Shown one piece after another: positions 476 through 63,549 of a DNA stretch of 64,000 bases. This DNA comes from Clostridia bacterium (GTDB lineage Bacteria > Bacillota > Peptococcia > DRI-13 > SM3-B62). Position 1 is the stretch's first letter. Each line of letters starts with the position of its first letter. The position numbers and the translations under genes were made by a program. The stretch covers positions 105,234 to 169,233 of the forward strand of contig JAHDSQ010000004.1 in the NCBI GenBank assembly GCA_018432615.1, read 5' to 3'. A model generated the notes under the pieces. That model was given only the letters and a program-made list of their open reading frames with translations, did not search any database and was not told where the DNA came from.

Positions 476-865
476 ATGAAAAAAGTTTATCCTGTAATAT
501 TAACTCCAAGCAAAAAAGGTTATGTTGCTTATGTGCCGGACCTTGATATTAATACACAAGGCACCGATATAATCGATACCATTGAAATGGTCCGCGATGC
601 GATAGGCTTATGGGGTATTAGCGAAGAAGACGCTGGAAGAACTATCCCTGAGGCTTCACTGAAATCATCTGTTGAATGTGAAGAAAACGAAATTGTTACA
701 TTGGTCGATATTAACTTTGCAGCATATCGTAGGGCTCATGACATGCGAACCATCCGTAAAAATCTTACCCTTCCCAGCTGGCTCAACGATCGTGCAGAAA
801 AGGCTGGTGTAAACTTCTCGCAAATCCTACAAGAAGGATTAAAAGAAAAACTCGGTATTCAGTGA
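476..865 (+). CDS. hicB: HicB-family antitoxin with C-terminal RHH DNA-binding tail
   Basis: N-terminus YPVILTPSKKGYVAYVPDL...GTDIIDTIEMVRDAI is typical of the HicB fold. C-terminus KNLTLPSWLNDRAEKAGVNFSQILQEGLKEKL is RHH-like. RBS aaggagg precedes the ATG. Confidence 0.8.
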   Translation: MKKVYPVILTPSKKGYVAYVPDLDINTQGTDIIDTIEMVRDAIGLWGISEEDAGRTIPEASLKSSVECEENEIVTLVDINFAAYRRAHDMRTIRKNLTLPSWLNDRAEKAGVNFSQILQEGLKEKLGIQ

Positions 866-959
866 CTTAAGAGGTCTTAACTGGTTGCTCATTTATAAAG
901 TTGAGCATGACATACTTGTTTTGACTCTTACTCGCACTGGAACTGTACGCCAAGCTTGA
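864..959 (+). pseudogene. 3' remnant of a YafQ/RelE-family toxin gene
   Basis: The frame reads DLRGLNWLLIYKVEHDILVLTLTRTGTVRQA*. WLLIYK..D.LVLTL.RTGT matches the conserved C-terminus of YafQ-type mRNA interferases. No start codon or N-terminal part is present. Confidence 0.5.
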
Positions 960-990
960 AACGGATTGTATAAAATGTATAAAAAAAATA

Positions 991-1013
991 GAGCAGCCGA
1001 TTGCTGCTCTTTT
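991..1013. terminator. Bidirectional intrinsic terminator
   Basis: Stem gagcagc / gctgctc with loop cgatt, an A8 run upstream and T4 downstream. It sits between the + remnant and the - strand ORF at 1029-1217. Confidence 0.55.
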
Positions 1014-1028
1014 CATTACAAAGCCATA

Positions 1029-1217
1029 TTATCTTCTAATAAACCTTCGCGGCAGAACTTCCCTTTTAATCGGGGTGCTACCCATTGAACGCAACTGTTC
1101 ATCGATATCCTCAATGCGAACTAGGATGGACATTTTGTTGGTATGCTCAGCTGTAAGCCAAGCTTTAACCAAACGGTCACGTTCTGAAAGCAAACGATTT
1201 TGCCGATTATCAGACAT
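1029..1217 (-). CDS. Hypothetical small protein (62 aa)
   Basis: ORF only; no family recognised. The terminator lies just downstream on its strand. Confidence 0.3.
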   Translation of the reverse strand: MSDNRQNRLLSERDRLVKAWLTAEHTNKMSILVRIEDIDEQLRSMGSTPIKREVLPRRFIRR

Positions 1218-1578
1218 ATTAACACCACACTTTTTTCGTAATTGGGTAAAGCAGAATTTTGTTTCTTGTTATTATTATAACCTATAAAATACAAAATGTT
1301 AAGACTTTAAACAAACATAATTATAATTTTAATCATTATTATAAATTTTTGTGTACGTCGCTACAACCCGTATACACTAAGAAATACAAGACAGAAGATA
1401 GCAAACTAGGCTGAAAAAGAAAATCAAATATTTACACATATAAATATTAAACAAGAATTAAATCATATCAAACTTGACAGGGCTTGCGACAACCATTATC
1501 AACAGTATAGTTAATAAACGTTAATAATACTTGACAATACTTCTCGATTCCTCTATCCTTGACTTGGAGGTGTTATTT

Positions 1579-2328
1579 ATGTCCAAAGAACTAATAACCG
1601 CTCAGGACTTGGCTGAAGCTTTAAATCTTTCTGTGGAAACGATTTGGAGGTATACAAGAGAGAATAGAATACCCTACCTTGAATTAGGCAATAAACAGTA
1701 CCGTTACAACCTTAATGAAGTAATCAACGCTTTGGCCGGTACGGTGCGGGAAAAAAAAGCCAGCTATGCAACCGATACCACAAGAAAGTATACCTATCAG
1801 GATTACCTGGAAATACCGGATGAACCGGGTTATCGTTTTGAAATCCTGGAGGGGTTGCTGATCAAAGAACCTGCGCCTAATGTGATGCATCAGCGAGTTT
1901 CCCGGCGGCTTCAACGCTGCCTGGAGGACTATTTCTGGGAGGTCGATCCCACCGGAGAAATATTCAATGCGCCGTTAGACGTAACCTTTCACGATACCAC
2001 CGTGGTTCAACCTGATCTGCTCTATATCTCGGGAGAACAGAAAAAATTGGTCAAAGAGACCCGGATTGACGGCCCGCCTACGCTGGCGGTTGAAATACTG
2101 TCCCCTTCTAGCAGGCGTAAGGATAGGCTGCAGAAACTCAATATTTACCAGAAGGTTGGGGTACGTCACTATTGGATCGTGGATCCCGAGGAAAAAACCT
2201 TGGAGTGTTTCGCTCTTCGGGATGGTGCCTATGCCCTGGTTGCCTCCGGGATGGAGGAGGATGTTGTGGAGCATCCACACTTTGAAGGTCTTGTCGTTTC
2301 TCTGAAGGAATTATGGGCTGTAAATTGA
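1579..2328 (+). CDS. Excisionase/MerR-type HTH fused to a Uma2 (DUF820) PD-(D/E)xK endonuclease
   Basis: ATG at 1579 follows ggagg. N-terminus ITAQDLAEALNLSVETIWRYTRENRIPY is an HTH. The rest matches Uma2: YTYQDYLEIPDEPGYRFEILEGLLI...PDLLYISGE...PPTLAVEILSPSS...DRLQKLNIYQKVGVRHYWIVDPE. Confidence 0.75.
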   Translation: MSKELITAQDLAEALNLSVETIWRYTRENRIPYLELGNKQYRYNLNEVINALAGTVREKKASYATDTTRKYTYQDYLEIPDEPGYRFEILEGLLIKEPAPNVMHQRVSRRLQRCLEDYFWEVDPTGEIFNAPLDVTFHDTTVVQPDLLYISGEQKKLVKETRIDGPPTLAVEILSPSSRRKDRLQKLNIYQKVGVRHYWIVDPEEKTLECFALRDGAYALVASGMEEDVVEHPHFEGLVVSLKELWAVN

Positions 2329-2344
2329 GATAGGAGCTGGTAAC

Positions 2345-2620
2345 ATGGAATTAGCAAAAGTTACTGTTCGAGGGCAAATCACAATACCTAAGGAAATACG
2401 TAAAAAGTTGAATATCAAAGATGGCGACAAAGTGGTTTTCCTGGAAGAAAACGGGAAAATAATCATTGAAAACTCTGCAATGGTTGCCCTGCGAGAGGTA
2501 CAGTACGCTTTCAAAGGCGAAGCGGAAAGGCTTGGTTTGAAGAATGAGCAGGACCTAGTAGATATGGTAAAAGAAGTCAGAAGGGAAATGTGGAAAGAAA
2601 GCCATGCGGATCATGATTGA
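2345..2620 (+). CDS. AbrB/MazE/SpoVT-family DNA-binding protein (antitoxin-like)
   Basis: N-terminal swapped-hairpin motif KVTVRGQITIPKEIRKKLNIKDGDKVVFLEENGKIII. Confidence 0.75.
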   Translation: MELAKVTVRGQITIPKEIRKKLNIKDGDKVVFLEENGKIIIENSAMVALREVQYAFKGEAERLGLKNEQDLVDMVKEVRREMWKESHADHD

Positions 2621-2754
2621 TAGATGAAAGCGCACGCTATAGATAAATATCAGGCTGGGAATTAAATAAGGTTGGATTTATGAGGTTATTTTACTGTATG
2701 TTGTGATATAATCATATTATAAACGGCCTGCAAAGGAGTGGGTTTATTGTGAGC

Positions 2755-2925
2755 ATGGTTAAAGAAGAAGCTAAAAAAATTATAGATAAATTGCCTGAAC
2801 AAGCAACATGGGATGATATAATGTATCAACTTTATGTGAAGAAAAAAATTGAGGCTTCGATCAAAGCTGCTGAAGAAGGAAAAGTTATTTCGCATGAAGA
2901 AGTGAGAAAGAGGTTCATAATGTAA
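2755..2925 (+). CDS. Small antitoxin partner of the downstream RelE/ParE toxin (56 aa)
   Basis: Not in the ORF track. Translation is MVKEEAKKIIDKLPEQATWDDIMYQLYVKKKIEASIKAAEEGKVISHEEVRKRFIM. Its stop overlaps the toxin start (taATG at 2923-2927). An alternative GTG start is at 2749. Confidence 0.6.
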   Translation: MVKEEAKKIIDKLPEQATWDDIMYQLYVKKKIEASIKAAEEGKVISHEEVRKRFIM

Positions 2926-3236
2926 TGAATATACGTTGGTCAGAACCGGCAGTTATGGATTTGGAGAATATAAGAAATTATATTGCCAGGGATTCAGAAT
3001 ATTATGCGGCTGATTTTGTTGCAAGAGTTATAGGGTCTGTAGAAAAACTATGTATATTACCAAGAATGGGAAGAAAAGTACCGGAAATTGATAATGAGAA
3101 AATAAGAGAGATTATTTTCCAAAACTATCGCATTGTATACCGTAAAGAGTATGATAACGAAGTTCTTATATTAGGGATAATACACGCAGCAAGAGAGTTT
3201 AATAGCATTAATCTCCACCCTTGGGAAATCAGATGA
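2925..3236 (+). CDS. RelE/ParE-family type II toxin
   Basis: The pattern W...A..DL..I..YI........A..F...I......L...P..G......IRE....NYRIVYR......V.IL.IIHAAR is typical of ParE/RelE. Confidence 0.8.
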   Translation: MNIRWSEPAVMDLENIRNYIARDSEYYAADFVARVIGSVEKLCILPRMGRKVPEIDNEKIREIIFQNYRIVYRKEYDNEVLILGIIHAAREFNSINLHPWEIR

Positions 3237-44755: not shown

Positions 44756-45046
44756 ATGGCTGTGGGAATCTTGCTGATGCTGGCGGGTGTAATAATAATT
44801 ACTATTTTTGGTTTATACAAAATCCTCAAGGAGCTTAAGGCCGGGGATATTTATACCTTATATCTTATTGTTAAAGATCAGGAAGATTATGTTGAGGGTT
44901 ATCTCAGGAACGTGGTGAAACGAATCAAGCGGGAGGGGATACCCGGACGCCTAGTGGTATTAGTCGGGGCATCCCGTGACCAGACGGGGGCAATAGTTCA
45001 GCGCCTGGCAAGAAAGCTGTCGTTTATTGTCCGGGAAATAAATTAA
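44756..45046 (+). CDS. Small membrane-anchored hypothetical protein
   Basis: One N-terminal TM (ILLMLAGVIIITIFGLY); no family recognised. Confidence 0.4.
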   Translation: MAVGILLMLAGVIIITIFGLYKILKELKAGDIYTLYLIVKDQEDYVEGYLRNVVKRIKREGIPGRLVVLVGASRDQTGAIVQRLARKLSFIVREIN

Positions 45047-45125
45047 GGAATAATATAGTTTATATCTTCCGAAAGGAATTTTATTATATAATAGTGTCAG
45101 GGTTTGTATTGGAAGGAGTGTTGTA

Positions 45126-45464
45126 ATGGAAGATAAATTACTTAATATAATGGAAAAAATGTATAATGAGATTAATGACATGAAGACGATAATGGCAACA
45201 AAACAGGATATAACTAACATGAAGACGATAATGGCAACAAAACAGGATATAACTAACATGAAGACGATAATGGCAACAAAACAGGATATTACTAAAATTG
45301 AAATTAAAATAGAGAATGAAGTTGTTGATAAGGTTCGTGCTCTTTATGATAATAGAGAGATACAATCCGAAACAAACGAAAAAATATTAAATACTATAAA
45401 CCGCTTAGAGACAAAAATAGATGTACTGCAGAAGGAAACGGCACATGTTCGTAGAGTTAAATAG
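45126..45464 (+). CDS. Coiled-coil hypothetical protein with three tandem 13-aa repeats
   Basis: MKTIMATKQDITN is repeated 3 times. Visibly AT-rich gene with a strong terminator downstream. Confidence 0.5.
   Translation: MEDKLLNIMEKMYNEINDMKTIMATKQDITNMKTIMATKQDITNMKTIMATKQDITKIEIKIENEVVDKVRALYDNREIQSETNEKILNTINRLETKIDVLQKETAHVRRVK
45180..45296 (+). repeat. 3 x 39-bp perfect/near-perfect tandem repeat (in frame)
   Basis: Units start at 45180, 45219 and 45258 (atgaagacgataatggcaacaaaacaggatataactaac). The third unit differs at its 3' end. Confidence 0.9.
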
Positions 45465-45497
45465 CCTTGAATTGAAATTAAGATTTTATTATACAAA

Positions 45498-52218: not shown

Positions 52219-52254
52219 CAATTAACTTATCGATCGTCTGGGAGGGAACTGTTA

Positions 52255-53528: not shown

Positions 53529-53646
53529 GACAAAAAATCGCGGCAAAACACAAAAATCCGCTACAAAATTTACAATATAAGTTTATAATACTAAATGATG
53601 GCAATACTACTAACAACAACTAAAAATCAATAAGGAGGAAAAAACA

Positions 53647-54390
53647 GTGGAAATGCAGTTGTTGTTAGAAAAAACCAGGGTCCTGCACCAGTTGTTGCAG
53701 AAATCAGCCGCACAGGCCCTTGACTACCCTGCGGTAGCGGAAGAATTGTCGGGCATGCTTGAATCAAATGTTTATATTGTCGGCAAGAAAGGAAAGCTTT
53801 TGGGTAAGGGAGAGGTGAGCTCGCTACATGGCGGCCTATTCCCATACTCCGAACTGGAAAAAGGGGAGTTTTCGGAGGAGACCCAGCAGTGGTTATTTGG
53901 CTTTATCCACACAGAGGTCAATCTCGTCCCCCTGGAGAGTGATTTTTGCACGATTCTCGCTCCGGTCTTCGGAAGCGGGGAAAGGATGGGGACGGTGGTT
54001 TATGCCAGAGAAAACCGTGCTTATACCCCGGCGGAGACCATTTTAGCCGAGTATGGCGCCAGCGTTGTCGGGATGCAGATCTTGAAAAATGCCAGTCAAA
54101 AGCTGGAGAACGACGCCCGCAAGAAAACAGTTGTACAGTTGGCCTTGGAGGTGCTGTCCTATTCCGAACTGGAGGCGGTTAAATACATCTTCAGCGAAAT
54201 CGAAGGAAGCGAAGGCTTCCTTGTAGCCAGCAAGCTGGCCGAGGAGTACAAGCTGACCCGTTCCGTAATCGTCAATGCTCTGCGCAAGCTAGAGAGCGCA
54301 GGTGTTATAGATGCCCGCTCCCTGGGAATGAAGGGCACCTATATCAAGATTTTGAACGATTACCTCTATGAGCAGTTGGCTCAAATCTAG
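53647..54390 (+). CDS. codY: GTP/BCAA-sensing global regulator CodY
   Basis: LLEKTRVLHQLLQK at the N-terminus, a GAF-like core, and a C-terminal wHTH ELEAVKYIFSEIEGSEGFLVASKLAEEYKLTRSVIVNALRKLESAGVIDARSLGMKGTYIKILN. Confidence 0.9.
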   Translation: MEMQLLLEKTRVLHQLLQKSAAQALDYPAVAEELSGMLESNVYIVGKKGKLLGKGEVSSLHGGLFPYSELEKGEFSEETQQWLFGFIHTEVNLVPLESDFCTILAPVFGSGERMGTVVYARENRAYTPAETILAEYGASVVGMQILKNASQKLENDARKKTVVQLALEVLSYSELEAVKYIFSEIEGSEGFLVASKLAEEYKLTRSVIVNALRKLESAGVIDARSLGMKGTYIKILNDYLYEQLAQI

Positions 54391-54525
54391 TGTTCTTTTC
54401 CCGCCTGAAGTCTGTAAAGTGAAAGCGGGAAAAATGTAACGCAGAAACAGAGGAAATAAGTAGAATCAAAAGATATATGGAAGAAGGCGAGACACACGCC
54501 CTTGGGCGGAAGTCTCGCCTTCTGC
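54310..54525 (+). repeat. Repeat copy A: authentic codY 3' end + downstream region with a 12-bp-stem hairpin
   Basis: Direct repeat of 56660-56794 and 57615-57825. Hairpin agaaggcgagac/gtctcgccttct at 54482-54523 has no clear U-tract. Confidence 0.85.
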
Positions 54526-54604
54526 ATATCTCTACGCTAAGGATTGTGGGTTTTGGTTGATAGTACAAATGCAATAAGTTATTTAGTAGCGCACTCACTC
54601 TTTA

Positions 54605-54653
54605 ATAAGTAAACATCTAAATGAGAAATTTTCTCATTTAGATGTTTACTTAT
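54605..54653. repeat. 49-nt perfect palindrome immediately upstream of the AAA-ATPase promoter
   Basis: ataagtaaacatctaaatgagaaa-t-tttctcatttagatgtttacttat, followed by a -10-like tataat at 54667. Confidence 0.85.
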
Positions 54654-54700
54654 CCTGAATTCCGAGTATAATATATAGTGAACCGAGGGGAGTGTTAAAG

Positions 54701-55972
54701 ATGCTTTTACAATTTAACTTTAAAAACTTCAAGTCATTTCGTGATGCCACAACGTTAGATTTAACTGCCACTAGAATTACAGAGTACAATAACCACGTAA
54801 TTTCTGTTGGTAACGAGAAAGTTTTGCCTATTGCTGCAATCTTTGGTGCTAATGCCAGCGGTAAGTCAAATGTTCAAGAAGCCTTGAGGTACATGACTAC
54901 TTATGTTGTCAGCTCATTCGGGTACGGTGGTGATGAGTCGGGCAAAAAAAGTAAGTCCGAGTTTTTAAAGCCGACACCATTCTTGCTTAATCATGATAGT
55001 AAGAATGCCGAATCCTCATTTGAAGTATATTTTATTTCTTCCGAGGAGAATGGAGCCAAGTCATATAATTATGGATTTACTGTTGGTCAAAATGGAATAA
55101 ATGAAGAATGGCTGAATTATAAATCCAAATCTTCACGAGGCGACTACAAGAGAATATTTTATAGGAACGGCAAAAGTTTAGATTTATCAGGTATTGCGCC
55201 TAAGAGTCAAGAGAACATTAAAATAGCTCTTGAAAAGGAAGCGTTGATTGTATCTCTTGGCGCGAAATTAAAAGTTTCGAAATTGAAGCTAATACGCGAT
55301 TGGTTTCTTGATAATGAATTCGCAGATTTCGGGCATCCAATTGAGAATTATTTCTTGTGCGAGCAGTTACCTGATGATTTTGTTGATAGCAAGGAAGTGC
55401 AGCAAAAAGTTGTTGATTACTTCTCTGCATTTGACCCTTCGATTATAGGTTTCGAAGTTGAAACCATTGAAAGTGGAGATGACAAAAAGTCCTCAAAGGT
55501 AAGAATTGATGCAGTTCACAAAATGATAGATTCAGATGAAACGGCAATAATTCCTTTAAAATCAGAATCAGCAGGAACGCTAAAAATGTTCGCACTTTAT
55601 CCATTGTTGCAAGAAGTGTTGGAGACCGGTGGTGTGTTGTTTATAGATGAATTGAACGCACGACTGCATCCTTTGCTTGTTCGTTCTTTTGTGATTACGT
55701 TTCTCAATCCAGAAACTAATAAAAAACACGCCCAACTCATTTTTACGTCACATGATTCATGGCAACTTAATAGTAATATTCTGCGCCGCGATGAAGTATG
55801 GTTTACTGAAAAAGCCGATAATGGCATATCAACACTCTATTCGCTGGCAGATTTTATTGATGAAGATGGCGTGAAAATCAGGAAAGATGAAAATTATGAA
55901 AAAAATTATCTTCTCGGCAAATACGGTGCGATTCCCACTATGAAGCACTTTGATATGTTTAAGGGGGAATAG
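54701..55972 (+). CDS. AAA/ABC-type ATPase (AAA_15/21-like) of a two-gene RloA/RloB (AbiL-like) cassette
   Basis: FKNFKSFRD...IFGANASGKSN (Walker A), VLFIDELNARLHP (Walker B), IFTSHD (H-loop). ATG 54701 is 8 nt after gaggggag. Confidence 0.8.
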   Translation: MLLQFNFKNFKSFRDATTLDLTATRITEYNNHVISVGNEKVLPIAAIFGANASGKSNVQEALRYMTTYVVSSFGYGGDESGKKSKSEFLKPTPFLLNHDSKNAESSFEVYFISSEENGAKSYNYGFTVGQNGINEEWLNYKSKSSRGDYKRIFYRNGKSLDLSGIAPKSQENIKIALEKEALIVSLGAKLKVSKLKLIRDWFLDNEFADFGHPIENYFLCEQLPDDFVDSKEVQQKVVDYFSAFDPSIIGFEVETIESGDDKKSSKVRIDAVHKMIDSDETAIIPLKSESAGTLKMFALYPLLQEVLETGGVLFIDELNARLHPLLVRSFVITFLNPETNKKHAQLIFTSHDSWQLNSNILRRDEVWFTEKADNGISTLYSLADFIDEDGVKIRKDENYEKNYLLGKYGAIPTMKHFDMFKGE

Positions 55973-55974
55973 TC

Positions 55975-56631
55975 GTGGTAGAAAGAAATGGAAAGCGAAA
56001 AACCCGTGAGCAGCTATCAAAGCGCCGAATCCCTAAGCTTGGGTATTATTTCATTGTTATCGATACAAAAGAAACCGAACAGAACTATATGATTGGCTTG
56101 CGAGAGTCAATACCTAAAGAACTGCAAGGGAAACTGGTAATAAAGGTTTGTAAAGCAAAAACAGTTGAACTTGTTAATGAAGCTCTAAATATGGCCTCAT
56201 TACAACCCCAATACGGAGAGCCATGGATTGTATTTGATAGAGATCGGGTAAAAGGTTTTAATCAAATTATATCCTTAGCAAAGGAAAAGGGCATTAATGT
56301 GGGATGGTCCAACCCCTGCATCGAAATATGGTTTAGCGCATATTTCGGTGCAATGCCTGCATATCAGGATTCAGTGTCATGTTGTGGCGGCTTTGAAGAA
56401 AGTTATCTTAAAATTACCGGTCAGAATTATCAAAAATCCGATGTTGAAATTTATTCAAAGCTATGTCGGTTTGGCGATGAAAAGCAGGCATTTGTTATCG
56501 CAAAGCAAAAGCTCCAAGAAAACCAGCGCAATGGCAGGACCGCTCCGTCACAAATGTGCCCTGCTACTACTGTATTTGCTTTGGTCGAAGAAATTAAAAA
56601 TAAAATTGAGAGGCGTCTATTCACATCATGA
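55975..56631 (+). CDS. RloB-like (Toprim-related) protein
   Basis: YYFIVIDTKETEQNYM and PWIVFDRDRV..F...I..A...GINVGWSNPCIEIWFSAYF match RloB hallmarks (CEGxKTEPxYF ; FDxD...SNPCFExW). It starts 3 nt after the ATPase stop. Confidence 0.8.
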   Translation: MVERNGKRKTREQLSKRRIPKLGYYFIVIDTKETEQNYMIGLRESIPKELQGKLVIKVCKAKTVELVNEALNMASLQPQYGEPWIVFDRDRVKGFNQIISLAKEKGINVGWSNPCIEIWFSAYFGAMPAYQDSVSCCGGFEESYLKITGQNYQKSDVEIYSKLCRFGDEKQAFVIAKQKLQENQRNGRTAPSQMCPATTVFALVEEIKNKIERRLFTS

Positions 56632-56659
56632 TCTGAAGCAGGACGATACTATTCTTGAC

Positions 56660-56794
56660 AAGATTGAAGGGTACCTATATCAAGATTTTGAACGATTACC
56701 TCTATGAGCAGTTGGCTCAGATATAGTATTTTCGCCTAAAGTATGTGAAGTTAAAGCGGGAGAAATGAGAAGCAGAAACAGAGATAATAAGGAG
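56660..56794 (+). repeat. Repeat copy B: diverged partial copy of the codY 3' end + proximal downstream sequence
   Basis: gggtacctatatcaagattttgaacgattacctctatgagcagttggctcagatatag... aligns by eye to 54329-54460. It lacks the hairpin. Confidence 0.85.
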
Positions 56795-56835
56795 TATGTG
56801 ATATAATACTTTCAAGATAGAAGGTGGGTGATTAT

Positions 56836-57162
56836 ATGAGTCAGGATATTGAAAAGCTGACTAATGGGATTGTTGACAAATTTAACCCCCAAAAAATAAT
56901 ACTCTTTGGATCACATGCACGAAAAGAAGCAACCGAAAATAGTGATATTGATATTTGTATTATTGTAGATATCGAAGAGGAAAATGTTAGATCATTACGA
57001 AGGAATATCCGTGGTTATATTCATAAGCCAGAAGGGCTTAATTACCTTGATAGACCGGTAGATATCATATTGTATACACCACAACAATTTGAATATATTT
57101 CAAAAAAGGCTGGAACAATGGCCAGTGTCATTGCCAAGGAGGGTGTGGTTGTACATGGTTGA
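56836..57162 (+). CDS. Minimal nucleotidyltransferase (MNT, NTP_transf_2)
   Basis: KIILFGSHARKEATENSDIDICIIV (GS-x9-DxD motif). It overlaps the HEPN gene by 8 nt (ATGGTTGA). Confidence 0.8.
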   Translation: MSQDIEKLTNGIVDKFNPQKIILFGSHARKEATENSDIDICIIVDIEEENVRSLRRNIRGYIHKPEGLNYLDRPVDIILYTPQQFEYISKKAGTMASVIAKEGVVVHG

Positions 57163-57547
57163 TAGTACAAATTATCCTGACTGGATGGAAAGGGCGAAGC
57201 AGGATTATATATCTGCCAAAATAATACTTGATAATGATGGACCAACTAATGTTGCGGCTTTTTTGCTACAACAAGCAATAGAAAAAGTATTAAAGGCATA
57301 TTTATTACATCAATCAGGGGAATTAGTTAAAGGACATTCAATAGGGACTTTACTGGGGCTATGTATTAAATACGAGCCGCTATTCAAGCAATATCAAGAA
57401 GATTGTGCCGCGATAGATGATTATTATATTGAGACAAGGTATCCGCCTGATGTCCCGTTTGAAATTAATAAGGATGAAGTGGTTTATGCGGCAGTGATAG
57501 CGGAAAAACTACATACAATAGTAATGGACAAGATTTCGATTACTTAA
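57155..57547 (+). CDS. HEPN domain protein, partner of the MNT
   Basis: WMERAKQDYISAKIIL.....NVAAFLLQQAIEKVLKAYLL......KGHSIGTLL...YYIETRYP is the classic HEPN pattern. Confidence 0.8.
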   Translation: MVDSTNYPDWMERAKQDYISAKIILDNDGPTNVAAFLLQQAIEKVLKAYLLHQSGELVKGHSIGTLLGLCIKYEPLFKQYQEDCAAIDDYYIETRYPPDVPFEINKDEVVYAAVIAEKLHTIVMDKISIT

Positions 57548-57614
57548 TAATCATTATTAAAATAGTAAGTCCAAAGGCCTGGATTTTCTGTTCGGCATAC
57601 TCGTTAGCTTCCTT

Positions 57615-57825
57615 GATGCTCGTTCCCTGGGGATGAAGGGCATCTGTATCAAGACTTTGAACGATTACCTGTACGAGTAATTGGCTCAGATCTAGTATTT
57701 CCGCCTGAAGTCTGTGAAGTGAAAGCGGGATAAATGAGAAGCAGAAACAGAGGAAATAAGGAAAATCAAAAGATATATAGAAGAAGGTGAGGCACACGCC
57801 GCTTGGTGGAGGCCTCGCCTTCTTT
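57615..57825 (+). repeat. Repeat copy C: diverged codY 3' end (with an internal stop) + full downstream region including the hairpin
   Basis: gatgctcgttccctggggatgaagggcatctgtatcaag...ctgtacgagTAAttggctcag...gaagaaggtgaggc...gcctcgccttct aligns to 54310-54525. Confidence 0.85.
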
Positions 57826-57923
57826 ATGTCATTATGTGATGAGCATACTCACAAATACTTTCCAGGGGCATATTGACATCATATATAATGTCATTCTACA
57901 ATCTGTATTAATAAAGCAGAGGA

Positions 57924-58325
57924 GTGATTAAGGTGGGAAAAAACCTTGAATATTACATGGGACTCAATTACCCCTTTAATGTAAAACCAGATCTTGATGA
58001 CGGCGGATATGTTGCCGAATTTCCTGATCTGCGCTATTGTGTTGGAACCGGAGATACAATTAATGAAGCAATTGAAGATGCTATGATTGCAAAAGAAGAA
58101 TGGATTAAGGCTGCATATGAATATAATGCAACTATTCCGGAGCCGACAAGTAACGAAAGCTATAATGGTCGCGTGACCCTTCGTTTGCCCAAATCGCTCC
58201 ATAGAAATATCATTGAAAGTGCCAAAAATGAAGGTGTAAGCGCAAACCAATTTCTTCTCCATCTAATCAGTTTAGGTATGGGGAATAAAAACGTTAGAAC
58301 AAAATCAAGGAGCCGTCATTCCTAA
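57924..58325 (+). CDS. hicB: Solitary HicB-family antitoxin (HicB fold + RHH tail)
   Basis: YPFNVKPDLDDGGYVAEFPDLRYCVGTGDTINEAIEDAMIAKEEWI and GRVTLRLPKSLHRNIIESAKNEGVSANQFLLHLIS. No adjacent hicA. Confidence 0.7.
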   Translation: MIKVGKNLEYYMGLNYPFNVKPDLDDGGYVAEFPDLRYCVGTGDTINEAIEDAMIAKEEWIKAAYEYNATIPEPTSNESYNGRVTLRLPKSLHRNIIESAKNEGVSANQFLLHLISLGMGNKNVRTKSRSRHS

Positions 58326-58552
58326 ACCTGTTTCGGTCTATTCTGAGTATTCGCCTGCGAAAGCTATTTTGTAATTGGTGCCATCGAAATAAACGTCATA
58401 ACGGCTCTGGCTTCACGACGTTCCGGAGCCGACTCGGTTGGCGAAAGGGTGTGGCTCGTACACTTGAGTCTTACCCAAAAGAATTGTTTCGTTGAACTCG
58501 CTTAACGCGCCCGGAAGCGTGAAACTGTTGATATCTGACTTCACGTTTACTG

Positions 58553-58581
58553 TTTACACGTGTTATAACACGTGCTATAAT
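58553..58581 (+). promoter_or_regulatory. hicAB promoter with an embedded 18-bp perfect palindrome (candidate HicB operator)
   Basis: TTTACA(58553)-17 nt-TATAAT(58576). The palindrome cacgtgttataacacgtg (58557-58574) fills the spacer. Confidence 0.5.
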
Positions 58582-58807
58582 GACTATGTACCCTGGAGTA
58601 AAGGATGTGTTTCCGGTGACATCATACTCATCAAAGGAAATACTACAATTAATAGCTAAAGATGGTTGGGTTATAAAAAGGCAACGAGGATCTCATTTAC
58701 AGCTTGAACATCCGACTAAAAAAGGTAAAGTTACTGTCCCTCATCCTGAAAAAGACTTAAAGCCTAAAACCGTTTCAACTATATTAAAACAAGCTGGTCT
58801 AAAATAA
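58580..58807 (+). CDS. hicA: HicA-family mRNA interferase toxin
   Basis: KEILQLIAKDGWVIKRQRGSHLQLEHPTKKGKVTVPHPEKDLKPKTVSTILKQAGL. The true start is probably GTG 58607 or 58616, because the predicted promoter -10 overlaps 58580. Confidence 0.8.
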   Translation: MTMYPGVKDVFPVTSYSSKEILQLIAKDGWVIKRQRGSHLQLEHPTKKGKVTVPHPEKDLKPKTVSTILKQAGLK

Positions 58808-58829
58808 TTACTTGGAGGTAGATTTTATT

Positions 58830-59258
58830 ATGGAAAGATATATCTATCCTGCTATATTTGAACGCGATGAAGATGGCTATTCTATTACTTTCCCTGACCT
58901 GCCTGGTTGCATCACTTGTGGTGATAGTTTAGAAGATGCTTATCTTATGGCAAGAGATGCTCTTGAACTGCATTTATATGGAATGGAAGAAGATAATGAT
59001 GATATTCCTTCACCATCTAAACCTGAGAGGATTACAGTAAACTCGGATTCGTTTATAACTTTGGTCGAAGCTTATATGCCATTGATTCGTGATGAAATGG
59101 CAAACAAAGCAATAAAAAAAACGCTTACAATTCCAAAATGGCTTAATGATTTAGGTGAAAATAAAAAGGTCAATTTCTCTCAGGTCTTACAAAACGCACT
59201 TAAAGAAAAAGTGGGTGTCTATGACTACTATAGTAAAAAAAGCAAAAGCAAAGTTTGA
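58830..59258 (+). CDS. hicB: HicB-family antitoxin with RHH tail
   Basis: YIYPAIFERDEDGYSITFPDLPGCITCGDSLEDAYLMARDALELHL and KKTLTIPKWLNDLGENKKVNFSQVLQNALKEK. The tail is paralogous to HicB at 476-865. Confidence 0.8.
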   Translation: MERYIYPAIFERDEDGYSITFPDLPGCITCGDSLEDAYLMARDALELHLYGMEEDNDDIPSPSKPERITVNSDSFITLVEAYMPLIRDEMANKAIKKTLTIPKWLNDLGENKKVNFSQVLQNALKEKVGVYDYYSKKSKSKV

Positions 59259-59372
59259 CTAATAGAAAACTAGGTTTGGCCTAGTTCTTTCTTTTTTAGG
59301 TGATGTCAGATGACTCCATGTCTTCTTTAAATACTTTTCGGCTTGTGGGGAATATTTTACCGGTAGCATTTA

Positions 59373-59756
59373 TCAGTCCCCCGGCCCAAAGATGTCCCGG
59401 TGCCTTTCTTCATCGGTTCTTTCATCTTTTTCGGCGTACCCTTTGGCTTCCTGCATGAAATGGCTTCCTGCCGATTTCATGCCCGATCTTACCTCCCGGA
59501 ATCTTTTTATTAATTCTTTTCCTTCATATCCCTGGCTTATTAAATCTTCTAAGATAAGATCAGAAAAATCGTCATTCTGCATTTTGGTTAATCTGCGAAT
59601 AACTATTTCATCATCCCGTACGGTGCATTCAACTTCCTTTCCCAAGTTCAGAAGTTCGACGTATTTCTTAGGTATTGTTATTTGATTCTTTGAACTTACA
59701 CGGATAATCTTGGAATCCTCCATATTGTCCATCTCTTTTGTTAAAATCATACTCAT
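59373..59756 (-). CDS. AbrB/MazE/SpoVT-domain protein
   Basis: IIRVSSKNQITIPKKYVELLNLGKEVECTVRDDEIVIRRL. Confidence 0.7.
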   Translation of the reverse strand: MSMILTKEMDNMEDSKIIRVSSKNQITIPKKYVELLNLGKEVECTVRDDEIVIRRLTKMQNDDFSDLILEDLISQGYEGKELIKRFREVRSGMKSAGSHFMQEAKGYAEKDERTDEERHRDIFGPGD

Positions 59757-59940
59757 ATTTTATGCACCTCCCTTGGAAAAAATACAAGAAAACAAGAAAT
59801 CATATAATCTTTAAATCTTTACTCCTTGGTTATAGGATACAATAAAAACATGAAAATGCAAATAAGATGGATATGATGGCAAACCCCCGCCGTACGTAAA
59901 AGTAGCGGGGGTTTTATTGACAAGCATGGTTCCCTTTGTT

Positions 59941-61851
59941 TTAATATTCGTTTACCTGGAAAGTGAGGATTTTATCAAATACGATATAATCCTTTCTGCT
60001 GATGAAAGGCCCTGTGTTGTAAGTAATATTAAAGGAGTAGTATGGAGAACCCGAGCCTGCAGAAATCCCTTCAAACCAACTGACGAAAGCATTGACTTGA
60101 GGCATAGTCAGGTCATATTCTTTTTCTGTTCCGTTAGCCAGGATGATTTCGAGCAAAGCGTTAGTGGAGGTGCCGGGTGTAGCGGAGGCTTCATTGGAGT
60201 TGTCGCTTTCACTGCCGGAGGAAACGGAAGTAACGACATAATAGTAAGTGGTACCGTTGACTACGCTGTCATCTTGACAACTGGTAGAGGTAACATCATT
60301 TGCAATCGTGGTATAAGGGCCGCCGGAGGTTTCAGCTCGTTTGACATTGTAGCTGTTGGCATCGTCCACGGCGTCCCAATTAAGAAGCACTAGCCCATCA
60401 CCGGGTGTTGCGGTGAGATTCGTGGGGGCGGGTAATGGTGTTGCTACACTGGGCGTAGCGGAAGCTTCATTGGAGTTATCGCTTTCACTGCCGGAGGAAA
60501 CGGAAGAAACAACGTAATAGTAAGTGGTGCCGTTAATTACGCTGTCATCTTGACAACTGGTAGAGGTAACATCATTCGCAATCGTGGTATAAGGGCCGCC
60601 GGAGGTTTCAGCTCTTTTGACATTATAGCTGTCGGCACCAGTCACGGAATCCCAATTAAGAAGCACAAGCCCGTCACCGGGCGTTGCTGTGAGGTTCGTG
60701 GGGACGGGTAATGGTGTAGTAAATAGATTGAAATCTATTTGTACGGGGGTGTGCCTTTCAGTTGTCGTACCGTCCCCTAACTGACCACAGTCATTTTTTC
60801 CCCAAGCCCAGACTGTGCCGTCATTTGCTACTGCAAAACTATAGTAACCTCCTGTCGAACAGATAGAAATGTTACTCAGAGATGTGATATTAATAGGTGC
60901 ATGTCTATTAGTCGTCGTACCGTCTCCTAAATTTCCATAACCATTATATCCCCAAGACCAAACTGTTCCGTCGCTTTTTATTGCCATATTGTGACCTTGA
61001 CCAATGCTGTAAGAAACAAAGTCGCTTAAGGCAGAAACCTGTACAGGGGTGTGCCTTTCAGTTGTTGTGCCATCACCTAATTGACCTTTATCATTATATC
61101 CCCAAGCCCAGACCGTCCCGTCATCTTTTAAAGCAATATGATGGGAGCCTTTGCCGGCAATTAATACTACATTGCTCAAATTGGAAACCTGTACTGGTGA
61201 GTGCTTTTGAGTTGTCGTACCGTCTCCTAGTTGTCCAAAATTATTATATCCCCAAGCCCAGACCGTCCCGTCATCCTTTAATGCTATACTATGATTTGCT
61301 CCGCCAGCAATTGATACTACATTACTTAAATTAGGAACCTGAATAGGTGTTAAGCGATCGGTAGTAGTACCATCCCCTAATTGACCCGTATAATTATGTC
61401 CCCAAGCCCAGACTGTACCATCGTTCTTGAGTGCTAAAGAAAAATAGGAGCCTGAAGATATGGCAATGACATTTGTTAAGGAGGGGATTTGGGTAGGAAC
61501 ATTCATATTGGTGGTATTGCCGATTCCAAGTTGTCCATGACCATTATGTCCCCAAGCCCAAACAGTTCCGTCATCCTTTAAGGCTAGACTATGAAATTTT
61601 GCAGAAATTGCTATAACGTCGCTTGTTATTTGCACCGGTGTTGTTTTATCAATGTTTGTACCGTCCCCTAACTCTCCATATTCATTACTACCCCAAGCCC
61701 AAACAGTTCCGTCGTCCTTTAAGGCCAACGTATGGGTGTCACCTCCGGATATTTGCGGTGTTACCGTCCCTGAGGCCTGGACCCCCAAGGGGCACAAAAA
61801 TACCGCTATCATTGTAAAAAAAACAATAAACAGATTTAAAGCTCTTTTCAT
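59941..61851 (-). CDS. Secreted RCC1-repeat beta-propeller protein with two FN3 domains and an unassigned ~75-aa C-terminal domain
   Basis: Signal peptide MKRALNLFIVFFTMIAVFLCPLGVQASG (ATG 61851 after gagaggaga). Seven DGTVWAWG.N..GQLGDGTT blades. Two PxPTNLTATPGDGLVLLNWD...SYNVKRAETSGGPYTTIA...TTYYYVV units. Confidence 0.8.
   Translation of the reverse strand: MKRALNLFIVFFTMIAVFLCPLGVQASGTVTPQISGGDTHTLALKDDGTVWAWGSNEYGELGDGTNIDKTTPVQITSDVIAISAKFHSLALKDDGTVWAWGHNGHGQLGIGNTTNMNVPTQIPSLTNVIAISSGSYFSLALKNDGTVWAWGHNYTGQLGDGTTTDRLTPIQVPNLSNVVSIAGGANHSIALKDDGTVWAWGYNNFGQLGDGTTTQKHSPVQVSNLSNVVLIAGKGSHHIALKDDGTVWAWGYNDKGQLGDGTTTERHTPVQVSALSDFVSYSIGQGHNMAIKSDGTVWSWGYNGYGNLGDGTTTNRHAPINITSLSNISICSTGGYYSFAVANDGTVWAWGKNDCGQLGDGTTTERHTPVQIDFNLFTTPLPVPTNLTATPGDGLVLLNWDSVTGADSYNVKRAETSGGPYTTIANDVTSTSCQDDSVINGTTYYYVVSSVSSGSESDNSNEASATPSVATPLPAPTNLTATPGDGLVLLNWDAVDDANSYNVKRAETSGGPYTTIANDVTSTSCQDDSVVNGTTYYYVVTSVSSGSESDNSNEASATPGTSTNALLEIILANGTEKEYDLTMPQVNAFVSWFEGISAGSGSPYYSFNITYNTGPFISRKDYIVFDKILTFQVNEY
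60170..60721. repeat. Tandem 276-bp duplication encoding the two FN3 domains
   Basis: agcggaggcttcattggagttgtcgctttcactgccggagg at 60181 recurs at 60457 (period 276 nt = 92 codons), with few substitutions along the unit. Confidence 0.85.
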
Positions 61852-61962
61852 TAAAATCTCTCCTCTCATTTCCTTATATTGTTTTCCTTTTTGAGTATAG
61901 CACATACAATTCGAGACTATTGTCACAATTTGTCGAAAGACATAAAAAAAGCCACTAACATC

Positions 61963-62002
61963 CCGCTTCTAAAACGGTAATATTAGTGGCATTTGATAAT
62001 CT
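61963..62002 (-). terminator. Intrinsic terminator after mazF (minus strand)
   Basis: gccactaa...ttagtggc stem. On the minus strand it is followed by tttttt. Confidence 0.55.
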
Positions 62003-62040
62003 GTATAAGATTTGGCCGTACAAATAGCGAAAACTGACAT

Positions 62041-62388
62041 TTATAGGTTTAAATATATCTTTATAGCCATTCTTATCTGTTCCTTTATTTCCTCAGAGCA
62101 AATAATGCCGCATTTTTCACCGAGACGTTCCTTGGCAATTGCTCTTATCTGATGTGCCATTGCTATTGAATCGTTAGGTAATCCGGTCGCCTTTGTATTC
62201 AGTAATACTTCGATCGGATATACTCTTCTACCCGGTTTTACCGATGTTAGGGACAATACAGTAACTATCGATAATGACTGGTTGACTTCTTCTGCTGATA
62301 CAACAAGTACCGGTCTTGTTCCTGATTGTTCAGATCCTTTTGTCGGTTCTAAATTTGCCCAAAATATTCCCCATTGGTATTCTACCAC
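62041..62388 (-). CDS. mazF: MazF/PemK-family endoribonuclease toxin
   Basis: WGIFWANLEPTKGSEQSGTRPVLVVS...LSIVTVLSLTS...P..V.L......GLPNDSIAMAHQIRAI. Confidence 0.85.
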   Translation of the reverse strand: MVEYQWGIFWANLEPTKGSEQSGTRPVLVVSAEEVNQSLSIVTVLSLTSVKPGRRVYPIEVLLNTKATGLPNDSIAMAHQIRAIAKERLGEKCGIICSEEIKEQIRMAIKIYLNL

Positions 62389-62654
62389 TCCTTCTCCCTC
62401 CCTATTATCTCAAGGTCAGAAGATTCAAAGTCCCGCATGCTTTCCTCCAAATCCTGAATAAACAGCGGGTCTTTTGCAGCTTTCATCATTTCCTTTTTCA
62501 ATTTTTCCTTTTCTATCTTCACAGAATATTCTTCGAGCGCTTCTTTTACTCCGGCGTTTACTGAGTTTATATAACTATTCTTTGCATAAGCTCTATACCT
62601 TTCCATCAAATCGGTCGGTAACGAAAAAGTAACATTCTTGACTTTTTTCACCAT
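62382..62654 (-). CDS. Cognate antitoxin (RHH-like N-terminus)
   Basis: KNVTFSLPTDLMERYRAY beta-strand/helix start and an acidic C-terminus. It overlaps mazF by 7 nt. Confidence 0.6.
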   Translation of the reverse strand: MVKKVKNVTFSLPTDLMERYRAYAKNSYINSVNAGVKEALEEYSVKIEKEKLKKEMMKAAKDPLFIQDLEESMRDFESSDLEIIGREKEW

Positions 62655-62811
62655 GATGAACACCCCTGGATATAATATTGTTTAAACACATTGTAATATA
62701 TTCAATATAAATATGCAATGTTATATTAAATCACATTACAATATGGTATAATATCCCATAAGAGGAATCGTGTCGGAAATAAGAAGAATAGCGAATCGCG
62801 GGGGTTGTGAC

Positions 62812-63549
62812 ATGGCATGGCGAAAGTGGCGGGACGCCCTTTATGAATTGCTTTTTCCGGGGAGCCATCAGTGTTTTTTCTGCTGGAAAGAAGTTGAGGG
62901 ACAAGTGGTCAAGGGAGTGTGCGAAGAGTGCGAAGAGAAGATCATGGCCTTGCATAAGGAACTGTCCGGTTGCCCGCGGTGCGGGCATTTTACGGGAGGA
63001 AAGGAATGCCCAAATTGTTACGATTGGGGCGATGTTCCCGGAAGAATCTTGAGCGTTGTACCATACAGCGGTATCTACAGGGACATGGTGTATTCCTTAA
63101 AATACGGGGGAAGGGAGGAACTGGCGGATCCTTTGAGTTATCTGATGGCTCAAAGGTACGATGCCTCCGAGTTGAGCAAGGGAGTCGACCTTATCATGTC
63201 TGTGCCCCTTCATCCGGACAGGGAAGAGGAACGGGGATATAACCAGAGCGCCTGGTTGGCCCGGCGCGTGGCAGGATGGCTGGGGAAAAGGTATGACGGA
63301 GAGAATCTTGTCAGGTTGCGTTATGAGAGGGCACAAACAGGATTGAAGAGGGAAAAGCGGAAGGAGAACATGGCCTTTGCTTTCGGAGTTGCGTTTCCGG
63401 AGAAGGTGAGGAATAAAAGAATAATCCTGATAGATGATGTGACAACGACGGGGGCTACCCTTAATGCCTGTATGCGCGTGCTTTACGAGGCCGAGGCGAA
63501 GGAGGTTGTGGCCTTGACCTGGGCGGCAGGATACGAAAAAATTGTTTAA
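62812..63549 (+). CDS. comFC: ComF-family protein (ComFC-type Zn-finger + phosphoribosyltransferase fold)
   Basis: CFFC...CEEC...CPRCG...CPNC cysteine pairs and IILIDDVTTTGATL PRTase motif. Confidence 0.8.
   Translation: MAWRKWRDALYELLFPGSHQCFFCWKEVEGQVVKGVCEECEEKIMALHKELSGCPRCGHFTGGKECPNCYDWGDVPGRILSVVPYSGIYRDMVYSLKYGGREELADPLSYLMAQRYDASELSKGVDLIMSVPLHPDREEERGYNQSAWLARRVAGWLGKRYDGENLVRLRYERAQTGLKREKRKENMAFAFGVAFPEKVRNKRIILIDDVTTTGATLNACMRVLYEAEAKEVVALTWAAGYEKIV

Follow-up and report, generated by a model that had tools for sequence, protein, structure and literature searches.

Three copies of the codY end frame two cassettes

How a chromosome can gain defence genes at a site that carries no recombinase is the question raised by the locus behind codY in the stretch analysed here, 64,000 nucleotides (nt) from the metagenome-derived Clostridia bacterium assembly GCA_018432615.1 (contig JAHDSQ010000004.1, positions 105,234 to 169,233), called the window below. 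The end of codY, that is its last 81 nt and the 3' untranslated region (UTR), is present three times in the window, always in direct orientation, and the copies (A, B and C) bracket a cassette with a predicted AbiL defence system and a cassette with an MNT-HEPN toxin-antitoxin pair. With a probability of about 0.5, we propose that this array arose by recombinase-free accretion, in which incoming DNA would have been integrated serially by the host through homologous crossover in the codY end combined with illegitimate joins.

The intact codY gene (53647-54390, + strand) encodes 247 amino acids with the CodY GAF domain and HTH_CodY (Pfam), and its stop codon lies at 54388-54390. Copy A (54310-54535, +) is the live tail, in which the 81 nt that end codY are followed by 135-145 nt of 3' UTR; it contains a small stem (54396-54433) and a hairpin (arms 54482-54501 and 54504-54523, +; 12-bp outer stem and 4-bp inner stem, z=-4.6) that is probably the codY terminator. 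Copy B (56665-56797, +) starts at the equivalent of codY position 54329, runs to about the equivalent of 54466 and has no hairpin; a weak continuation to 56828 is possible. Copy C (57615-57835, +) starts at the equivalent of 54310 and is full length, with a hairpin at 57782-57823 (z=-4.4), and an in-frame TAA (57678-57680) replaces in it the CAG found at 54373-54375 of the live gene. All pairs aligned significantly in blastn (A-C, 84% over 214 nt, E=7e-64; A-B, 84% over 141 nt, E=7e-39; B-C, 88% over 129 nt, E=2e-42), and neither a repeat search nor blastn detected a fourth copy anywhere in the window. These results bear out the preliminary description of this DNA, which had reported three direct copies of the codY tail bracketing two cassettes at essentially these coordinates: a copy A ending in a 12-bp-stem hairpin, whose right limit is now set at 54535, a shorter copy B lacking the hairpin, whose limits are refined as given above, and a dead, full-length copy C with a hairpin, which extends to 57835. 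It had also placed an AAA-ATPase and RloB between A and B, and MNT and HEPN between B and C, in agreement with our Pfam assignments and, for the first pair, with PADLOC.

The hairpins of A and C both fold far better than shuffled sequences, and they differ by a compensatory change: where C and the sister species described below have GAGGC/GCCTC, A has GAGAC/GTCTC. A and B have an identical run of 47 nt in common (54337-54383 = 56673-56719); in the older tail pair, the longest identical runs are just 20-21 nt, as expected after decay. A block of 15 nt (54351-54365) is invariant in all copies. The limits of the repeats are inconstant, at 54310 and 54329 on the left and at about 54466-54490 and about 54560 on the right. 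Tails A and C have a GC content of 0.44-0.46, near that of the host, and the cassettes one of 0.36-0.38. Rfam gave no match for the 3' UTR or the hairpin and none at gathering score in the window, and no exact match to the non-coding tail motif turned up in a pattern scan of metagenome contigs.

The displaced tails were once working gene ends

Copy B differs from A at 3 of the 57 coding nt compared, all three changes being synonymous, so that the encoded peptide KGTYIKILNDYLYEQLAQI is identical. Three synonymous changes out of three have a probability of 0.007 under neutrality, and differences are found at 15/71 non-coding sites versus 3/62 coding sites (Fisher P=0.01). Copy C shows six synonymous and three non-synonymous differences from A, plus the CAG-to-TAA change, and at least six synonymous changes among nine would be expected under neutrality with P=0.005. 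The synonymous divergence from A is 0.28 for B and 0.37 for C, and the genome-wide value between the window and the sister (dS) is about 0.3. Because the changes are mainly synonymous and of sister-level divergence, B and C acquired most of their differences as parts of working codY genes, indicating that they are once-functional tails of diverged alleles and not in-situ duplicates decaying neutrally. The idea that each insertion brings a replacement tail thus stands, in the sense that a functional tail was brought or displaced. C decayed after its displacement and B did not, which suggests an order of events in accord with the sister genome.

An island at a site that is empty in relatives

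The gene order tadC-DUF192-codY-comFC was found in 12 Peptococcia relatives (metagenome genomes, CodY 70-82% identical), in which the gap between codY and comFC is just 112-650 bp and represents the empty site. Since these relatives have codY beside comFC, the 8.4-kb stretch of low GC that separates the two genes in the window is an island. The GC content drops from about 50% to 36-40% between 54400 and about 59900, and drops again over 61800-62700; the foreign material consists of the segment from 54536 to about 59900 and of a MazEF pair further downstream. The core genome resumes with the comFC-like gene (62770-63549, +), the right flank of the empty site in the relatives.

Searches with Pfam and, for the island, also with PADLOC revealed no recombinase, integrase or transposase among the island open reading frames (ORFs) or the approximately 30 ORFs of the window, and the window contains no tRNA genes. 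Judged by synteny, no integrase-bearing element is present at codY in the 12 close relatives or in 160 fetched loci. Among these 160 CodY-based loci, taken from genome and metagenome collections, only one belongs to a close relative (contig L001 of the sister), and none besides the sister carries a duplicated codY tail. An exact-match search for the CodY of the window, with both candidate start codons, gave no match. In viral contigs no codY tail serving as an attachment (att) site was seen, only phage proteins resembling the helix-turn-helix (HTH) domain of CodY. These include several proteins on IMG/VR contigs (L175-L182) that are 37-47% identical to the C-terminal HTH of CodY (residues ~170-237).

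The AbiL cassette ends in a double scar

The AbiL cassette contains AbiLi (54701-55972, +), an AAA_21 ATPase of 423 amino acids (PADLOC 1e-89, Pfam AAA_21) for which an identical protein was found (P0001), and AbiLii/RloB (55975-56631, +; PADLOC 1e-18, Pfam RloB), whose last residues are altered by a fusion. The adjacency of these two genes is the basis on which an AbiL system is predicted. In all contexts, the conserved AbiL module is bordered on the left by a palindrome, which in the window is perfect over 24 bp (54605-54653, z=-9.9) and overlapped by the -35 box of the promoter TTTACT-16-TATAAT (54645-54672). Nine further contexts contain the module at 84-91% DNA identity (L162, L167-L174), and its neighbours there include a tRNA gene, RelB, PNPOx and genes of a cyclic-oligonucleotide-based antiphage signalling system (CBASS). 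The unit common to all contexts always corresponds to window 54604/54612 to 56609/56611, ending just before the AbiLii stop, and it is not flanked by tail repeats in any of the nine. Plasmid and phage collections contained no match to the cassette DNA, and viral contigs gave just distant relatives of AbiLi (52-67%), on three contigs. The palindrome at the start of the module drifts in sequence among these contexts and yet stays palindromic, and the sharp limits of this recombinase-free module are kept in ten unrelated contexts.

In the window, the module is followed by a 55-nt fragment of an unrelated gene (56613-56667, +), which is 85% identical to L162 9211-9265 (E=1.5e-12) and spans the final 19 nt of the AbiLii ORF together with 36 nt beyond it, none of this being AbiL sequence. 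Its source is the interior of a 318-residue gene located 520 bp downstream of AbiLii in L162, and the fragment reads as the scar of a deletion of about 780 bp plus a truncation. It is fused to codY from position 54329, at a place where the two parents have just TGA (56665-56667) in common: L162 reads ...CAAGATTGAcgatgg, codY ...GGGAATGAAGGGCACC and the window ...CAAGATTGAAGGGTACC. Because a gene fragment is joined to the tail at this microhomology, the AbiL cassette ends in a double scar left by illegitimate recombination and not in an element terminus or an att site.

The second cassette consists of the MNT nucleotidyltransferase antitoxin (56836-57162, +; Pfam NTP_transf_2 1.8e-12) and the HEPN toxin (57155-57547, +; Pfam HEPN 3.8e-24). 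The genes overlap by 8 nt, and both were called in an independently assembled contig (L163, see below). The right end of copy B falls at a short similarity, AATAAG.AG.AT. At the B/MNT junction, the sequence and the alignments point to a putative extended -10 box, TGATATAAT (56799-56807, +), and to a candidate ribosome-binding site of MNT (56820-56828, +) whose counterpart in the alignment is the left hairpin arm. The 67-nt spacer between the HEPN stop and copy C (57548-57614) gave no match. At other loci, no duplicated tail was found to surround the same cassettes. The HEPN gene holds ATCCGCCTGATGTC at 57448-57461, which matches at 12/14 positions the TTCCGCCTGAAGTC of the codY 3' UTR (54399-54412 and 57694-57707), and the HEPN-to-tail deletion of the sister lies a few bases downstream of this similarity.

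The junctions are supported by reads

Two Logan contigs assembled independently from SRR13787012 match the window and break only inside the 47-nt A/B run. L161 corresponds to window 54354-56702 and L163 to 56690-60291, both with 100% identity, and because of this match the cassette-to-tail junctions are read-supported and not the product of one assembler. An artefact in which strain variants were concatenated through a common repeat deserves consideration, as the source is a metagenome assembly, k=31 contigs break at the 47-nt identical A/B run, and a de Bruijn graph alone cannot tell a tandem array from an excised circle plus a chromosome lacking AbiL. However, each of the four junctions (fragment-B, B-MNT, HEPN spacer-C and C-HicB) falls in unique sequence within Logan contigs that are unbranched and match at 100% identity; one of them, L161, was present in two samples. 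The copies, which have diverged by 12-16%, are not collapsed repeats, ordinary reads span 47 nt, and the sister genome has an independent, related structure. We consider such an artefact extremely improbable, and an assembly chimera was rejected on the Logan junction support and on the structure of the sister.

A sister genome holds one cassette without the other

The only close relative is the metagenome-assembled genome (MAG) GCA_018433675.1, whose CodY is 98% identical and whose DNA is 92.5-94% identical over 10 kb. Its codY contig (L001) shows the tail and the hairpin, followed by a sequence starting GTGCGCCCGG, in which the contig ends. A 2.9-kb contig of the same MAG (L164) carries, in order, a presumed intron 3' end, TCTCTACGCTA, the equivalent of window 56784-56821 (92%), an IS110-family insertion, MNT, HEPN truncated at the equivalent of 57463 (94% identity), the 3' UTR of the tail with its hairpin and, again, the intron 5' end; HEPN is fused to the tail at a TGAA(G) microhomology. 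In the window, the 11-nt TCTCTACGCTA lies at 54529-54539 within the native spacer 3' of hairpin A (54527-54560, +), and its recurrence after the presumed intron end is a match backed by position only. The sister, then, has MNT-HEPN between two tail/hairpin copies, no AbiL cassette and just the last ~40 nt of copy B. Because AbiL and most of B are missing there, the structure of the locus is variable between the two genomes, and MNT-HEPN appears as the older and AbiL as the recent acquisition. The MNT-HEPN event probably predates the split of the window and its sister, or else it was recurrent; the AbiL event is specific to the lineage of the window.

The GTGCGCCCGG element follows both sister hairpins (L001 10883-11008 and L164 2782-2907), and both contigs end 140 nt into it. 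With 31.6 bits against the Rfam model group-II-D1D4-3 (gathering score 32), it looks, from its sequence, like a group II intron targeting terminator hairpins; the window contains no element of this type. The IS110-family insertion (L164 156-2023; DEDD_Tnp_IS110 and Transposase_20) sits between the -10 box and the ribosome-binding site of MNT-HEPN and probably silences the pair in the sister. Either could be thought of as the agent of accretion; we rejected both, since they occur in the sister genome only and carry no cargo.

The codY gene itself is unusually close between the two genomes. Its dS is 0.136, against 0.28-0.35 for the neighbouring genes (cpaF 0.35, tadB 0.32, tadC 0.32, DUF192 0.28; Fisher P=7e-5), the intergenic region upstream of it shows 1 difference in 118 nt with L001, and a stretch of 105 nt (54307-54411) that begins at the left limit of C is identical (P ~0.003, post hoc). 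The low dS and the near-invariant upstream region (53529-54411 in all) may reflect inter-lineage recombination or strong constraint, and the former would fit codY as a recombination anchor between lineages.

Taken together with the empty site, these comparisons modify the earlier picture of the locus as an integrase-less hotspot. The insertion site behind codY is borne out by the codY-comFC adjacency in the 12 relatives, the lack of integrase and transposase holds for the window ORFs, and the content does vary, as the arrangement in the sister differs from that in the window; the hotspot itself is documented in one lineage only, from two genomes. The search for duplicated codY tails that had been suggested for other genomes yielded the sister alone, and the island reaches well past the limits drawn in the preliminary description (54310-57825), to 62750. 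Nor do self-contained, discrete elements with defined ends account for the data: the limits of the copies differ, the right end of AbiL is a truncated unrelated gene joined at a 3-nt microhomology, and the module occurs in other contexts without the tail repeat.

Host recombination as the favoured explanation

In our preferred scenario, the donors would be related lineages whose own codY was already followed by a defence or toxin-antitoxin cassette, and their DNA would be integrated by the host recombination machinery. One exchange would be homologous, in the conserved codY 3' end, and the other join illegitimate, at a microhomology of a few bases. The likeliest form would be the single-crossover (Campbell-type) integration of a re-circularised fragment carrying a partial codY tail and a cassette: a single crossover within the common tail would flank the cargo with two hybrid tails and duplicate the homologous segment. 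A direct duplication of this kind does flank each insert, about 160-180 nt long and with limits that differ per event. In an E. coli conjugation study, inserts with 109-950-bp duplications of the homologous locus were traced to single crossovers of re-circularised, partly deleted molecules (PMC3240628).

Two successive integrations would account for all six repeat limits. In the first event, a molecule with a tail equivalent to 54310 to about 54490 and MNT-HEPN would have entered, leaving C as a displaced tail that has since decayed. In the second and later event, a molecule with a tail from 54329 to about 54560, AbiL and the gene fragment would have displaced B, which is still pristine, and A would be the live tail. 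The identical 47-nt A/B run is where the exchange of the second event would be expected, and it is long enough for a homologous crossover. The repeats, the empty site in relatives, the former function of B and C, the illegitimate junction and the lack of a recombinase in the window are observations; the circular intermediate, a role of RecA and the order of the events are inferred. If the Campbell form and the related displacement of 3' ends discussed next are taken together, with the Campbell form preferred, the probability of accretion by host recombination lies at about 0.5-0.7.

Several points speak against this scenario. On the left, the displaced tails begin just 19 nt apart (54310 and 54329), a closer coincidence than random illegitimate joins would predict, which could point to a preferred site. 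Neither the donor allele (codY-tail-AbiL-gene 3) nor the pre-AbiL allele was observed. The second tail copy of the sister is 78% identical to C, and the tail phylogeny shows no clear orthology between them. The variable sites in the 200 nt concerned are compatible with the mosaic of a reciprocal crossover and too few to place it. The low dS of codY could be simply codon bias, a recombinase may be encoded elsewhere in the genome, beyond the 64 kb scanned, and the structure is known from two genomes only, both metagenome-derived.

A closely related alternative keeps the host machinery and changes the geometry. Under strict homology-facilitated illegitimate recombination (HFIR), a linear fragment of another allele would recombine homologously within codY or upstream of it, and an illegitimate join would fix its other end in the recipient tail. 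The former tail would thereby be displaced downstream together with its cassette, as has been suggested for the orphan arrays of Rhs, contact-dependent inhibition (CDI) and type VI secretion system (T6SS) loci. It draws on the same junction evidence and the same evidence for once-functional tails, it has a precedent in strings of orphaned 3' ends (PMC5361080), and codY with its promoter region, so close to the sister (1/118 nt, dS 0.136), could be the imported tract. In experiments, however, HFIR usually deletes recipient DNA: strict HFIR gave deletions in the E. coli study, in which the duplications came from the single crossover of circles (PMC3240628), and here two illegitimate joins would both have to lie within the final 80 nt of codY. 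We regard this form as rather unlikely, although it and the Campbell form are indistinguishable at this locus. The main rival, comparably doubtful, is site-specific accretion driven by a recombinase in trans, as in cis-mobilisable elements (CIMEs). The codY 3' end would then be the bacterial att site (attB), the att site of the incoming element (attP) would mimic the tail, and the copies would be attL, a hybrid att site and attR, of elements that lost their integrase or were always mobilised by one encoded elsewhere. Direct repeats with the gene 3' end around each unit and the live tail at the left are the picture of classic tandem accretion (PMC5704250), and the 19-nt spacing of the left limits of B and C, the 15-nt block identical in all copies and the identity of A with the sister from the left limit of C onwards point the same way. 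Yet neither cassette contains an integrase, an excisionase or a remnant of one, each consisting of two genes plus a scrap of 55 or 67 nt, and one of them ends in a foreign gene truncated at a microhomology. Repeats with shifting limits, 135-225 nt long at 84-88% identity, are not a short identical core; no integrase-bearing element was seen at codY in the 160 loci or in viral contigs, and none of the nine other contexts of AbiL shows flanking repeats.

The near-coincident left limits, the 105-nt identity between species and the tail/hairpin copies around the cassettes of the sister are also why we keep in view a further idea, namely that the codY tail with its hairpin is a genuine attachment site of a system that captures cassettes by means of a recombinase encoded elsewhere or of a type not yet recognised. 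We consider this improbable; if true, defence and toxin-antitoxin modules would be inserted and excised like integron cassettes at the end of a housekeeping gene in this Clostridia lineage. An integron or an array of attC sites lacking an integrase (CALIN) was itself rejected, as the repeats hold codY coding sequence, B lacks the hairpin, the cassettes have their own promoters and there is no intI; by inspection, no attC motif GTTRRRY is present at the cassette borders. Duplication of the codY tail in situ, with cassettes entering independently between the copies at a later stage, does find a parallel in a more distant relative: in a long-read assembly (L006 10751-11208), a perfect 219-bp tandem duplication starts 7 nt after the codY stop and accounts for a codY-comFC gap that is larger than in close kin (647 bp vs 333 bp). 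Here, though, insertion would have had to hit the duplication joints precisely on two occasions, and the differences in B, all synonymous in the coding part and concentrated in the non-coding part, are not those of neutral decay. On this pattern we rejected the explanation, which has very little probability left.

Relation to known systems

The codY locus resembles the orphan 3'-end arrays of Rhs, CDI and T6SS loci (Jackson 2009; Poole 2011, PMC3150448; Kirchberger 2017, PMC5361080), where a full-length gene is followed by displaced 3' ends, each with its own cassette. In these arrays too, the newest end stands beside the live gene, with the older ones shifted downstream. They form without an integrase, and the proposed mechanism combines homology-anchored with illegitimate recombination; the orphaned ends at codY were likewise functional parts of diverged alleles. 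Unlike those arrays, in which the ends encode variable toxin tips and selection keeps the immunity genes, the codY tail is the conserved HTH end of a housekeeping regulator. The displaced tails are pure footprints, and the cargo consists of unrelated defence and toxin-antitoxin modules with no polymorphic toxin domain.

The locus also recalls the tandem accretion of CIMEs and integrative and conjugative elements (ICEs) such as ICESt1/ICESt3 at fda of streptococci (Pavlovic 2004; Bellanger 2011; PMC5704250), with units lacking recombination genes stacked serially at one gene end and each lying between direct repeats that take in the target gene's 3' end. CIMEs, however, keep attL and attR with a constant short core and descend from an ICE or an integrative and mobilisable element (IME), whereas at codY the repeat limits vary, the array ORFs include no recombinase or remnant, and no integrase-bearing relative is found at the site. 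The codY locus thus works like an orphan 3'-end array and looks like integrase-driven accretion, and it fails one defining feature of each. With the inserts of the E. coli study (PMC3240628) it has in common a flanking direct duplication of part of the locus, whose limits are set by the point of breakage and rejoining of the incoming molecule. That study used a laboratory plasmid system; here, the process is deduced from natural sequence and would involve homeologous partners and two successive events. Finally, hotspots without mobile elements (Oliveira, Touchon, Rocha 2017, PMC5635113) are similar in that a variable, recombinase-free island lies between core genes, with signs of recombination in the flanking core gene and, at codY, with the competence gene comFC adjoining. 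In that model, a double crossover in both flanks replaces content and duplicates nothing, while the codY locus shows additive stacking with the end of one flank duplicated.

How defence islands and hotspots free of mobile elements gain genes is still argued mostly from statistics. The codY locus keeps the scars of two successive gains, in the form of once-functional displaced ends, an illegitimate junction, an empty site and an intermediate state in the sister. It offers a concrete, testable model in which an island would grow additively by single crossover in a conserved gene end, as opposed to growth by double-crossover replacement only, and it suggests that the role of homologous handle can fall to a conserved regulator gene. 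Its value is illustrative rather than surprising, as toxin loci and integrase-driven accretion are known to show similar footprints.

Other features of the island and the window

Downstream of copy C, the island continues with a HicB-like gene (57933-58325), which has no partner toxin and is followed by about 250 nt of GC-richer DNA without an ORF (to 58580), possibly a decayed gene. A HicA (58607-58807) and HicB (58830-59258) pair comes next, then an AbrB/MazE-like gene (59373-59756, -), a secreted RCC1/FN3 protein (59941-61926, -) and a MazF/PemK toxin (62041-62388, -) with its upstream partner (62382-62663, -). The RCC1 gene is ancestral in the sub-lineage, because another relative (L081) also has an RCC1 gene between codY and comFC.

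Two further differences between the window and the sister lie upstream of codY. A stretch of about 430 bp (45045-45475) is absent from the sister; it contains an ORF (45126-45464) on three 39-nt tandem repeats (45168-45298), with no Pfam match. Conversely, the sister has about 690 bp extra between tadB and tadC (L001 7892-8587, opposite window 52221-52233). At its left end, the window holds a second cluster of toxin-antitoxin type (476-3236), with a HicB-like gene (476-865), an HTH and Uma2 nuclease gene (1531-2328), an AbrB-like gene (2345-2620) and ParE (2925-3236). An ORF at 32425-32913 matches only the C-terminal domain of SoFic-like adenylyltransferases and may be a gene fragment.

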